Assembly (NCBI GenBank): GCA_964424265.1
Contig: CAYRHX010000002.1
Span: 3,345-67,344, forward strand
Reading direction: 5' to 3'
DNA: 64,000 nt
DNA from: an uncultured Candidatus Saccharibacteria bacterium
GTDB taxonomy: Bacteria; Patescibacteriota; Minisyncoccia; Phycocordibacterales; UBA2100
Part shown: one piece after another, positions 40,588 through 42,700 of the stretch
How positions within the stretch are numbered: the stretch's first letter is position 1
How the letters are laid out: each line of letters starts with the position of its first letter
Notes under the pieces: model-generated
What the model was told of the DNA's origin: nothing
The model's database searches: none
What the model saw: only the letters and a program-made list of their open reading frames with translations
Position numbers and translations under genes: made by a program

Positions 40588-42117
40588 ATGTCACTAAAAA
40601 TCATTTTATTCCTGCTCGCCAGTGCGGGCCTTGTCGGTATCGGGATCGGATATTACCTCCGAGTTATTATTTCGTTAGGTAAACGCGGCTCAATGGAGCT
40701 CGAGATCAGGAAAATGATGCTCGACGCGGAGGAGCGTGCCAAGAAGATTTCTGAAGAGGCCGACCAGCGTGCAAAACACAAGGAGGAGCACGCGACCGAT
40801 GGATTGAAGGAGCGCGAGAAGGAGCTCAAGCAAGTGGAAGAGCGTCTCATTCGCAAAGAAGAGCTGCTCGACAAGCGTCAGACTAACCTCGATTCGGAGC
40901 AAGAATCGCTCGCGAAGAAAAACGAGGATGTGATCGCCTCGAAGGCGCGCGTTGAGGAGCTTGCCCGCGCACAGCAAGAAAAACTCGAGAAAATCGCTGG
41001 ACTTTCTGCAGAGGAAGCCAAGGCTGATCTCATAAAATCAGTCGAGAAACAATCCGAAACAGACATCGAGAGCCGCATGCGTAAGCTAGAGATCTCCGGC
41101 AACGACCAGCTCGAACATCGTGCGAAGGAAATCCTCACAACCGCAATTCATCGCCTCGGCAATTCAGTAGTCTCCGACGTCCTTGCAACGACCATTTCGC
41201 TGCCCAACGAGGAAATCAAAGGCAAAATCATCGGCAAGGAAGGTCGCAACATTCGCGCGTTTGAGCGTGCGACAGGTGTCGATGTCATCGTCGACGACAC
41301 ACCGGGCACCATCACCCTCTCTTCGTACGATCCGATCCGCCGACAGATCGCGCGCATTGCGCTCGAGAATCTGATCATCGACGGACGCATCCAACCCGCA
41401 AAGATCGAGGAGTCCGTGCAGAAAGCTGAGCAAGAAATCAACAACATCATCAAGAAAAAAGGCACCGAAGCCGCCTTCGAAGCACGCGTCACCAACCTTG
41501 ACCCCAAGCTCCTTATGATCCTCGGTCGTCTCTACTTCCGCTCGAGCTATGGGCAAAACGTCCTCGATCACTCGGTGGAAGTCGCGCACTTGGCCGGCAT
41601 GCTCGCCGCTGAGCTTGGCGCAAACGAGGCAACAGCTCGCGCAGGCGCGCTCTTCCATGACATCGGCAAAGCGGTCGACCACGAAGTGCCTGGTACGCAC
41701 GTAGAGATCGGTCGCCGCATCTTGCAGAAATTTGGCGTTGGAGAAGACGTGGTAAAGGCGATGCAAGCGCACCACGAAGAATACCCATACGAAACGCCCG
41801 AATCCATGATCGTGCAAGTAGCCGACGCGATTTCTGGCGCACGCCCTGGCGCACGCCGCGACTCAGTAGAAAACTACATCAAGCGACTCACTGAGCTCGA
41901 AGCAATCGCCAATGGCAATCCGGGCGTCGAAAAGAGCTATGCAATCGCCGCAGGACGCGAAGTCCGCGTCATTGTGAAGCCCGCTGAAATCACCGACCTC
42001 GATGCACGCAAACTCGCCCGCGACATCGCGGACAAAATAGAAAAAGACATGCAATACCCCGGAGAGATCAAGATCTCCGTCATTCGCGAAACCCGCGTGA
42101 TCGAGTACGCGAGATAG
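40588..42117 (+). CDS. rny: Ribonuclease Y
   Basis: N-terminal TM, coiled coil, KH (...[24 protein letters not shown]...), HD ([17 protein letters not shown]...[13 protein letters not shown]). Confidence 0.9.
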   Translation: [509 protein letters not shown]

Positions 42118-42149
42118 CGCAAACAAGGAGATTTTGATACAGTGGCCAC

Positions 42150-42383
42150 ATGAAGTCCCGTTACTCGTATCAAATCTTTCTGCGACCAGAGCAAGAGGGT
42201 GGCTATACAGTTATTGTCCCATCTCTGCCCGGATGCGTGACCTACGGAAAGACCGTTGAAGAAGCCAACGAAATGGCCGAAGATGCTATCCGCGGCTACC
42301 TTGCCAGCATGCGCAAACACGGAGAGAAAATCCCTTTGGAAGACAAGGGGAACATCATCGCCACAGCAACAGTGGCAGTTTGA
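42150..42383 (+). CDS. hicB: HicB-family antitoxin
   Basis: YSYQIFLRPEQEGGYTVIVPSLPGCVTYGKTVEEANEMAEDAIRGYL is HicB/UPF0150-like. Confidence 0.75.
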   Translation: MKSRYSYQIFLRPEQEGGYTVIVPSLPGCVTYGKTVEEANEMAEDAIRGYLASMRKHGEKIPLEDKGNIIATATVAV

Positions 42384-42601
42384 CCAGTATGCCCCGGCTG
42401 CCGTCGCGCACAGGCAAACAAATCGTCCGCATTCTGCTGCAGAATGGCTTCGTACTCGACCACGTTACCGGCAGTCACCATATCTTTGTCAACATAGACA
42501 CGAGTCGTCGAGTAACTATTACTGTTCACAATAAAGATATTCCCAAAGGAACACTTCGGGAGATTCTCAAGCAAGCCGGATTGTCCGCAGAGGATTTGTA
42601 G
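42380..42601 (+). CDS. hicA: HicA-family mRNA interferase toxin
   Basis: KQIVRILLQNGFVLDHVTGSHHIFV... is HicA/YcfA-like; 4-nt overlap with hicB. Confidence 0.8.
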   Translation: MTSMPRLPSRTGKQIVRILLQNGFVLDHVTGSHHIFVNIDTSRRVTITVHNKDIPKGTLREILKQAGLSAEDL

Positions 42602-42610
42602 GCGAGTTTC

Positions 42611-42700
42611 GTAGATAAAATAGAAAAGGATGCGCAATACCCAGGAGAAATTAAAGTAAGCGTGATACGAGAGACACGGGCTATCGAGTACGCTAGATAG
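42611..42700 (+). repeat. Diverged duplicate of the rny 3' end (encodes [28 protein letters not shown]), direct repeat of 42027..42117
   Basis: About 75% nt identity and 25/28 aa identity to the true rny C-terminus; follows the hicA stop in frame. Confidence 0.75.

Follow-up and report, generated by a model that had tools for sequence, protein, structure and literature searches.

Here we report that, in a 64,000-nt stretch of DNA from an uncultured Candidatus Saccharibacteria bacterium (contig CAYRHX010000002.1; this whole stretch is called the window below), the gene for RNase Y, rny, is followed directly by a hicB-hicA toxin-antitoxin cassette (hicBA) and then by a second, diverged copy of its own 3' end. 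The 583-nt insert at 42118-42700 is absent from all of the nearest relatives and is exactly delimited, and it has left the resident rny undisturbed, with the gene's native end in place. In the explanation that we favour, and regard as probable, this insert of hicBA and the relic of a foreign rny tail was acquired horizontally through homology-facilitated recombination of transforming DNA, with no integrase involved.

The order within the window is rny, a 32-nt spacer, hicB, hicA, 7 nt, and then the second rny tail with its stop codon (Table 1). The two tails form a direct repeat of 92 nt that is 74% identical, aligns without gaps and measures 583 nt from start to start; its local alignment scores 88, compared with 20.3 +/- 2.6 for shuffled sequence (z = 25.8), and it is the sole repeat of such kind within the window. 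Both copies end in TAG and the homology breaks off at the stop codon. The longest block of identity between them is 11 nt, and 17 of the last 18 nt are identical. Differences fall in 18 of the 29 codons, 15 of them synonymous only (including a TCC to AGC exchange) and three being conservative amino acid changes, which by Nei-Gojobori counting gives proportions of synonymous (pS) and non-synonymous (pN) differences of 0.91 and 0.10, and a pN/pS of 0.11. Because the differences are almost all synonymous, this pattern identifies the two copies as rny alleles that evolved as coding sequence in long-separated lineages, not as a duplicate decaying in place.

Comparison with relatives marks the copy after hicA (copy 2, the orphan) as the outlier. 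The G+C content at third codon positions (GC3) is 0.69 in copy 1, which is attached to rny, and 0.34 in copy 2, as against 0.65 in the rny body and 0.61-0.62 in clpP and HU. The peptide of copy 1 is identical to those of L020, L002 and L159-L162 (L-numbers are labels of the loci compared with the window), and its nucleotide identity to these relatives is 83-84%, the rny body having 79-81%; copy 2 is 71-74% identical to the same relatives. At non-synonymous and other diagnostic sites copy 1 matches eight of eight relatives and copy 2 none of the eight, with third codon positions mixed. Two private residues of copy 2, each an alanine in place of M or V, are absent from the 120 closest RNase Y proteins (M or L in 120 of 120, V in 119 of 120), and the first of them is also absent from all 80 species representatives; they look like a few changes gained after translation ceased. 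On these grounds the rny-attached copy is identified as native and the post-hicA copy as imported, and the substitution pattern indicates that the relic evolved as coding sequence before its arrival and later gained a few unconstrained changes.

The nearest relatives are free of the cassette: L159-L161 (RNase Y 92-93% identical at the amino acid level), L162 (91%) and L020, L002, L003 and L001 (86-89%) have a gap of 166-230 nt between rny and HU, with no hicBA in it. Because the bases after the orphan stop (TGGCTCTACAAAGCC...) align, from the very first one on, with those after the rny stop in L002, L003, L020 and L159, taking out 42118-42700 restores the empty site of the relatives exactly. 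At the other side of the insert, the 32 nt after the native rny stop have no counterpart downstream of rny in an alignment with the cassette-free relatives, and their right part (GATACAGTG...) corresponds to the leader conserved among related hicBA cassettes. These results bear out the original prediction, made from the letters of the window, that the last ~90 bp of rny recur in frame after hicA at about 75% nucleotide identity (the peptides are also as it gave them), that the cassette had been inserted at the 3' end of rny, and that one of the tails derives from a different rny allele. It had left open which copy is ancestral, and the identity of each copy to relatives now decides this. An old, fixed rearrangement, with both copies equally distant from relatives and the arrangement found clade-wide, is not what these loci display.

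The repeat-cassette arrangement is not an assembly artefact, because two independent assemblies of the species (L157, from ENA, and L158, from Logan) are base-for-base the same across the region; a look-up found the identical RNase Y on four contigs in all. The rny gene itself encodes 509 aa, matches the equivalog TIGR03319 at 603.5 bits (cutoff 454) and has the Pfam domains RNase_Y_N, KH and HD, and its body has no breakpoint in sliding GC3, nor in identity to L020. As a practical matter, the public annotation of the species (L157, L158) misses hicA and shows in its place a spurious antisense ORF of 169-173 aa (window 42296-42817, minus strand); because of this, the exact HicA is missing from the protein database, where the best match is 81% identical.

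Table 1. Coordinates of the gene-end copies, the cassette and neighbouring features in the window and in other loci.
Locus	Feature	Coordinates	Strand	Basis or setting
Window	rny (RNase Y), intact, native 3' end	40588-42117	+	TIGR03319; RNase_Y_N, KH, HD
Window	Repeat copy 1, assigned as functional native rny tail including TAG stop	42026-42117	+	GC3, relatives
Window	Left junction and cassette leader (32 nt)	42118-42149	+	~14 nt, then TTTTGATACAGTGGCCAC
Window	hicB, short antitoxin, 77 aa	42150-42383	+	PF15919, E 5e-12
Window	hicA toxin, 70 aa from ATG	42389-42601 (alternative TTG start 42380)	+	PF07927, E 2.5e-21
Window	Repeat copy 2, assigned as non-coding orphan derived from a foreign rny 3' end	42609-42700	+	GC3, identity, pN/pS
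Window	rny-HU intergenic region, starting with post-stop motif TGGCTCTACAAAGCC	42701-42859	+	Aligns with relatives
Window	HU promoter block TTGACA...CAAAAT, conserved	42784-42811	+	Promoter match
Window	HU (Bac_DNA_binding), right neighbour of hotspot	42860-43135	+	PF00216, E 7e-30
L016	Orphan rny tail	9478-9567		After relBE-like pair
L035	Orphan rny tail	8772-8863		Beside ATPase gene
L036	Orphan rny tail	8700-8787		After TrmB-like gene
L031	Orphan rny tail	3157-3193		After TrmB-like gene
L022	Two orphan rny tails	4288-4350 and 5469-5557		Three tails in a row
L006	Orphan rny tail	7574-7613		40-nt piece, no cargo
L081	groEL tail duplicates	4569-4672 vs 5222-5340		
L087	purC head duplicates	2314-2346 vs 2892-2924		
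L135	Gene-head duplicates	736-792 vs 1263-1318		
L107	Duplicates, ABC-transporter tail (convergent gene)	790-849 vs 1587-1646		
L096	Duplicates, tail of convergent gene	2207-2243 vs 2712-2748		

If the rny end had been duplicated locally in tandem as the cassette inserted, as a long target-site duplication, and the copies had then diverged at the site, this would fit the direct orientation of the repeats, their equal length and their position immediately at the flanks of the insert. Neutral decay, however, would give mostly amino acid-changing and frame-breaking differences in place of the 15 synonymous ones among 18 (pS 0.91, pN/pS 0.11), and it would leave the GC3 values of 0.34 and 0.69 unexplained; moreover, the two tails of the related locus L016 differ at 25 nt with zero amino acid changes, and the nearest cassette-free relatives are only ~20% diverged in rny. 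The substitution pattern effectively refutes such an origin, and we give it next to no credence.

The orphan lacks a usable start codon. It stands in frame with the hicA TAG stop, which, together with its intact reading frame and highly conserved peptide, might suggest that it is functional, either as a C-terminal extension of HicA made by read-through of the TAG or as an RNA element linked to RNase Y. Against this, it carries private changes at near-invariant RNase Y positions, Rfam matches within the window were to tRNAs only, and the hicBA cassettes that sit between rny and HU in L082, L084 and L085 have no orphan tail at all. The frame match itself is probably due to chance, because the equivalent orphans in L016 (after relE) and in L081 (after hicA) are out of frame with the upstream gene. 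We have rejected a HicA-orphan fusion since the in-frame relation is not conserved in those two loci, and consider any function of the orphan highly improbable.

The organism is a Candidatus Kaiserbacteria/Paceibacterota bacterium of the candidate phyla radiation. The synteny clpP-rny-HU-(tRNA-Gly)-trypsin-like protease is kept in nearly all of the 80 loci compared. Among the 74 species in which both genes were located, the rny-HU gap measures 97-298 nt in 40 and 397-4001 nt, with cargo, in 34. The 81 cargo ORFs of these 34 species include prephenate dehydratase, TrmB-like, five MazF/PemK, ParE, YafQ, MazE, AAA_14/DUF4143 ATPase, GIY-YIG and NYN proteins; no integrase, transposase or resolvase is among them, and the insert in the window holds hicB and hicA only. 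A search with a profile of the rny tail found seven extra tails in six other related loci, which belong to Kaiserbacteria/Paceibacterota and mostly have toxin-antitoxin or regulator cargo; in L022 and L006 there are patch duplications without cargo. All tail pairs measured (the window, L016, L022 copy 2, L035 and L036) have a pN/pS of 0.02-0.16. The left boundaries of the orphans, counted from the rny end, lie at about -37, -40, -63, -88, -92, -95, -100 and -108 nt.

The polarity seen in the window is reversed in L016 and L022, where the functional tail is foreign (GC3 0.34 and 0.31, the gene bodies having 0.71 and 0.66) and the orphan resembles native sequence. Compared with the sister species L023, the L016 orphan is 85% and the functional end 75% identical, and the foreign tract of L016 begins ~117 nt from the rny end, upstream of the orphan boundary at ~-93. 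The tail pairs of L035 and L036 are mosaics. The foreign tails (the window orphan and the functional tails of L016 and L022) have mutual identities of 0.70-0.71, as against a background mean of 0.74; because they are no more alike than background, these values point to independent donors, and on the same ground we rejected a tail lineage carried by an element.

These observations bear on the possibility that a tyrosine or serine recombinase, since lost or acting in trans, integrated the cassette site-specifically at the rny 3' end. In its favour, a conserved gene has been targeted at its 3' end, with duplication of that end, the site has been reused, as in the tandem array of tails in L022, five of the eight left boundaries of orphans fall close together, at -88 to -108 nt, and there is a Xer-like recombinase in the window. 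This explanation is opposed by the lack of a recombinase among the 81 cargo ORFs of 34 species and at any of the ~35 occupied sites, by orphan boundaries that spread from -37 to -108 nt, by the lack of any common identical core longer than 11 nt, by the polarity that varies among loci, by the L016 foreign tract that reaches beyond the repeat, by the occurrence of the cassette family at the unrelated genes groEL, purC and an ABC transporter, and by the lack of a rny tail or cassette on viral contigs. We consider a dedicated integrase unlikely and the Xer-like recombinase acting in trans a minor possibility, which leaves site-specific integration as a whole with a small chance of being correct. 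The original prediction of horizontal acquisition, by integration into or recombination at a conserved gene end, can in this way be refined: no integrase was found, and recombination is favoured over site-specific integration.

The recombinase in question (50887-51822, minus strand) is of the XerC/D tyrosine type, has Phage_integrase and SAM_1 domains, and lies among housekeeping genes; it is the sole recombinase in the Pfam scan of the window, which took in ~38 ORFs, among them about two-thirds of the larger ones. A phage or plasmid vector was also considered and rejected, as searches of a viral contig collection with a degenerate rny-tail pattern and with HicA gave no matches. An integron cassette was rejected because there is no adjacent integrase and the repeat, a directly oriented relic of coding sequence, does not form an imperfect palindrome like that of attC.

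We propose instead that DNA would enter by natural transformation, that homology to a conserved stretch (in the RNase Y tail, the HU promoter or HU itself) would anchor one end of it, and that the other end would be joined illegitimately or at a microhomology. The layout of L016, with a homologous switch at ~-117 nt and a non-homologous joint at ~-93 nt, is the pattern expected if a linear fragment had been joined homologously at one end and illegitimately at the other, and the cargo-less patches of L022 and L006 show it as well. In the window, the insert is joined non-homologously on the left, and its right joint can be placed only between -18 nt and the HU gene. The orientation there, with a native functional end and a foreign orphan, could not result from a single left-anchored event, and we envisage two routes to it. 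The donor may already have had hicBA beside its own displaced rny tail, as L016 has cargo beside its own, and a second event, anchored on the right in the strongly conserved HU promoter or the HU gene, would then have followed; or a circularised fragment may have been taken in by one crossover within the final ~18 nt of the tail. The relic would derive from the rny gene of another Kaiserbacterium. Addiction to HicA and HicB may then penalise loss by loop-out between the repeats, which would account for the persistence of toxin-antitoxin cargo and its association with flanking gene-end repeats.

The circular route is akin to a Campbell-type insertion-duplication, in which a circle bearing hicBA and a ~92-nt rny tail from its previous host integrates through one crossover in the final ~18 nt of the resident tail, as a unit that could loop out and re-insert. 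The exact tail-cargo-tail structure, the native downstream sequence that starts right after the orphan stop, the 17 identities in the last 18 nt, and the L035 and L036 mosaics, which fit crossover or conversion inside the tail, would all be consistent with such a unit. However, a circle that shares only the repeat cannot yield the foreign tract of L016, which starts upstream of the repeat, and the groEL tails of L081 differ through the stop codon and offer no homology for a terminal crossover. In addition, the foreign tails share no common lineage, the blocks of identity (11 and 6 nt) are below RecA requirements, and no circles were observed. The Campbell variant is disfavoured by L016 and L081, and we rate it as rather unlikely, if less so than site-specific integration.

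Several points weigh against integrase-free recombination of transforming DNA as well. The shared homology is short and ~25% diverged, and its longest identical blocks, of 11 nt, would be a poor RecA substrate; to produce the arrangement of the window, either two steps or a circular intermediate would be called for, and neither was observed; that five of the eight orphan boundaries cluster could point to a favoured site; and the XerC/D-like recombinase, 8 kb off, could in principle act in trans. Moreover, no donor with a matching rny tail or with a HicA more than 81% identical was found: the best match to the orphan among the tails of 80 species is 77-78% identical in nucleotides, its pair of alanines occurs in none of the 120 closest RNase Y proteins, and a metagenome scan with HicA returned distant relatives only (at most 61% identity).

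Genes for DNA uptake are encoded in the window itself, namely ComEC (PF03772 and DUF4131), PilB, PilC and RecJ, and it has been proposed that Patescibacteria gain genes through DNA uptake (PMC12455944). The uptake and pilus ORFs, at 13657-15138 (-), 16891-18567 (-), 25701-28562 (+), 28740-29957 (-) and 30013-31755 (-), comprise ComEC (Competence and DUF4131), RecJ, a pilin-like run, PilC (T2SSF) and PilB (T2SSE). One of the putative pilin-like ORFs was checked and had no Pfam match, and recA was not seen in the window.

Similar scars, with gene-end duplicates that have diverged synonymously, accompany related cassettes at other genes. Relatives of HicA at 71-81% identity occur in three settings: the rny-HU gap, the site after groEL, and the 5' end of purC. 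In L081, another Kaiserbacterium, hicBA follows groEL and is itself followed by a diverged orphan GroEL C-terminus (...EAAVADLPEEKK...GGMGEDY and stop; z = 17.9), which differs from the functional tail right through the stop codon. In L087, hicBA lies at the 5' end of purC and hicB is preceded by a diverged duplicate of the purC head (z = 8.9). More distant hicBA loci were taken from metagenomes; of the 41 that were testable, 9 have significant flanking direct repeats, and at least three of the nine (L135, L107 and L096) are gene-end duplicates with synonymous-biased differences. The flank repeats of L093, L095, L111/L146, L134 and the tandem toxin-antitoxin locus L137 are heterogeneous and not clearly gene-end duplicates, and were left uncounted.

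Except that its HicB has no DNA-binding domain, the cassette belongs to the HicAB family. HicA matches PF07927 at 76 bits (cutoff 27), has homologues that are likewise 70 aa long, and matches the HicA structures 6g26, 4c26 and 1whz in the PDB (E 3e-7 to 3e-6). Its TGSHHIF stretch aligns with GS(A)HHF of 4c26 and 6g26, placing a GSHH motif at the position of the catalytic histidine; the alanine in those crystal constructs is presumably a replacement of the catalytic His24. By this alignment HicA keeps the G-S-H motif with the catalytic-His position and is a putative RNase toxin. HicB matches PF15919 at 46.4 bits (cutoff 27) and covers profile positions 1-57 of 123, while HicB chains in the PDB (138-148 aa) align over their N-terminal ~60 residues only (residues ~3-70; E 2e-5). 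The protein is made up of the toxin-binding N-terminal domain alone, which is HicB-like with a partial RNase H fold. Neither Pfam nor PDB-chain matches revealed a C-terminal DNA-binding domain (ribbon-helix-helix, RHH, or helix-turn-helix, HTH) in the 77-aa protein, and HicB in related cassettes is also single-domain (77-90 aa) and without RHH or HTH. Autoregulation by this HicB, if any, would have to differ from that of DNA-binding HicB.

The two cassette genes are separated by 5 nt; with the TTG start of hicA they would instead overlap by 4 nt. The block TTTTGATACAGTGGCCAC upstream of hicB resembles a -10 element, and a GATACAnTG block is common to the window and to the hicBA cassettes of L081 and L083. 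Because there is no terminator after the rny stop, the hicBA operon may also be read through from rny. A lone HicB-like gene is present in two of the nearest cassette-free relatives (L159:21-269 and L160:21-269), ~2.7 kb upstream of rny and ahead of a sigma-factor gene.

Other features of the window were noted in passing. Between tRNA-Gly(TCC) and the protease gene lies an ORF of 223 aa (43265-43936, minus strand) that has an N-terminal HTH-like stretch, a LAGLIDADG-like motif (LGLGLYIGEGAKS) and weak similarity to the homing endonuclease I-DmoI (E about 0.03), with no Pfam match; homologues occur at the same position in L002, L030 and L035, and L159-L161 have a similar-sized ORF there on the same strand. 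A role for it in breaks at the rny-HU hotspot would be pure speculation. An intergenic repeat of ~156 nt at 15166-15321 and 28559-28714 (89% identical), with a partial copy at 46092-46142, forms a long hairpin with a fold energy of -68.5 kcal/mol (z = -8.1 vs shuffles). It is without a match in Rfam and may be an element resembling miniature inverted-repeat transposable elements, or a small RNA. A secreted or surface protein of 1295 aa (19739-23626, minus strand) has internal Cys-rich repeats (CG.K...CITTPC.PV..TY.N.C.M.ADGAT.AYEGACRP), which at 20403-20551 and 20844-20992 account for the only other diverged tandem-like repeat of the window.

Taken by itself, the locus is an ordinary transfer scar that leaves the understanding of rny and HicAB unchanged. 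Its value lies in showing how ultra-small bacteria of the candidate phyla radiation (CPR), which have uptake genes and few mobile-element genes, gain accessory cassettes, and as an example it is clean: the boundaries are exact, the donor allele is preserved, cassette-free relatives are at hand and there is no recombinase. The part worth following is the recurrence across genes and genomes, which suggests a general, countable footprint of homology-facilitated recombination. We put forward tentatively, as an idea that may well prove wrong, that toxin-antitoxin and small defence cargo spread without integrases among divergent CPR genomes and beyond, conserved gene ends serving as anchors for transforming DNA and the toxin-antitoxin pair protecting the insert from loop-out. 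If so, the anchors would include the RNase Y tail, the GroEL tail, the PurC head and the ABC-transporter tail, each transfer would leave a gene-end duplicate of the other allele, and orphan gene ends of uncultivated bacteria would record, in a form that can be read and dated, which donor had been paired with which recipient. Should the footprint hold systematically, they could be used to trace the donors, polarity and timing of transfers in metagenome-assembled genomes. Literature searches returned general papers on homology-facilitated illegitimate recombination (HFIR), toxin-antitoxin mobility and horizontal transfer in Patescibacteria, and no description of this footprint, which is absence of evidence only.

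The locus is best viewed as an unusually clean natural case of known processes, and it matches the behaviour of minimal mobile elements and hotspots and would fit the products of HFIR. Minimal mobile elements were reportedly described by Saunders and Snyder in Neisseria. Like them, the rny-HU gap is a fixed site with differing whole-gene cassettes (34 of 74 species) and no mobility genes, and exchange in the window would presumably also proceed by transformation and flanking homology. They differ in that they are exchanged cleanly, by double homologous crossover, with none of the orphan gene ends seen at the rny-HU site, and in that they were described within a genus, whereas the rny-HU hotspot spans a candidate class.

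The cassette itself is comparable to the type II HicAB modules (PF07927, PF15919; PDB 6g26, 4c26 and 6hpb), of a family known to be horizontally mobile (PMC2701414). It has the same toxin domain, resembling a double-stranded RNA-binding domain, with the conserved catalytic-His position, and is likewise a two-gene operon with a small adjacent HicB antitoxin domain. It differs from the structurally characterised HicAB in that its HicB lacks the C-terminal DNA-binding domain, and from HicAB modules also in its gene order, with hicB first and hicA second. Phage 21 and e14 at icd, SGI1 at trmE (PMC8409611) and SCCmec at rlmH offer a second parallel, as they too insert at the 3' end of a conserved gene, duplicate that end, leave the gene intact and reuse the site. 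However, elements of the phage 21/icd type encode or borrow a recombinase and have an identical core, and the insert in the window has neither; in that type the element-borne end becomes functional, whereas the imported end in the window is predicted to be a dead copy, although L016 and L022 do match the icd type in this respect.

Another likeness is to HFIR, which, in the passages of PMC2884548 and PMC3240628 that cite de Vries & Wackernagel 2002 and Prudhomme et al. 2002, is known in transformable Acinetobacter baylyi, Pseudomonas stutzeri and Streptococcus pneumoniae. HFIR is known from laboratory selections, whereas here it would be read from natural scars in uncultivated CPR bacteria; the anchors here are short and ~25% diverged, the products are gene-end duplications and not the usual deletions, and the orientation in the window needs an extra step. 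The two would be alike in integration without a recombinase gene and in the pairing of one homologous with one illegitimate joint, which is exactly the layout of L016, and the uptake genes that such a process would call on are encoded in the window.

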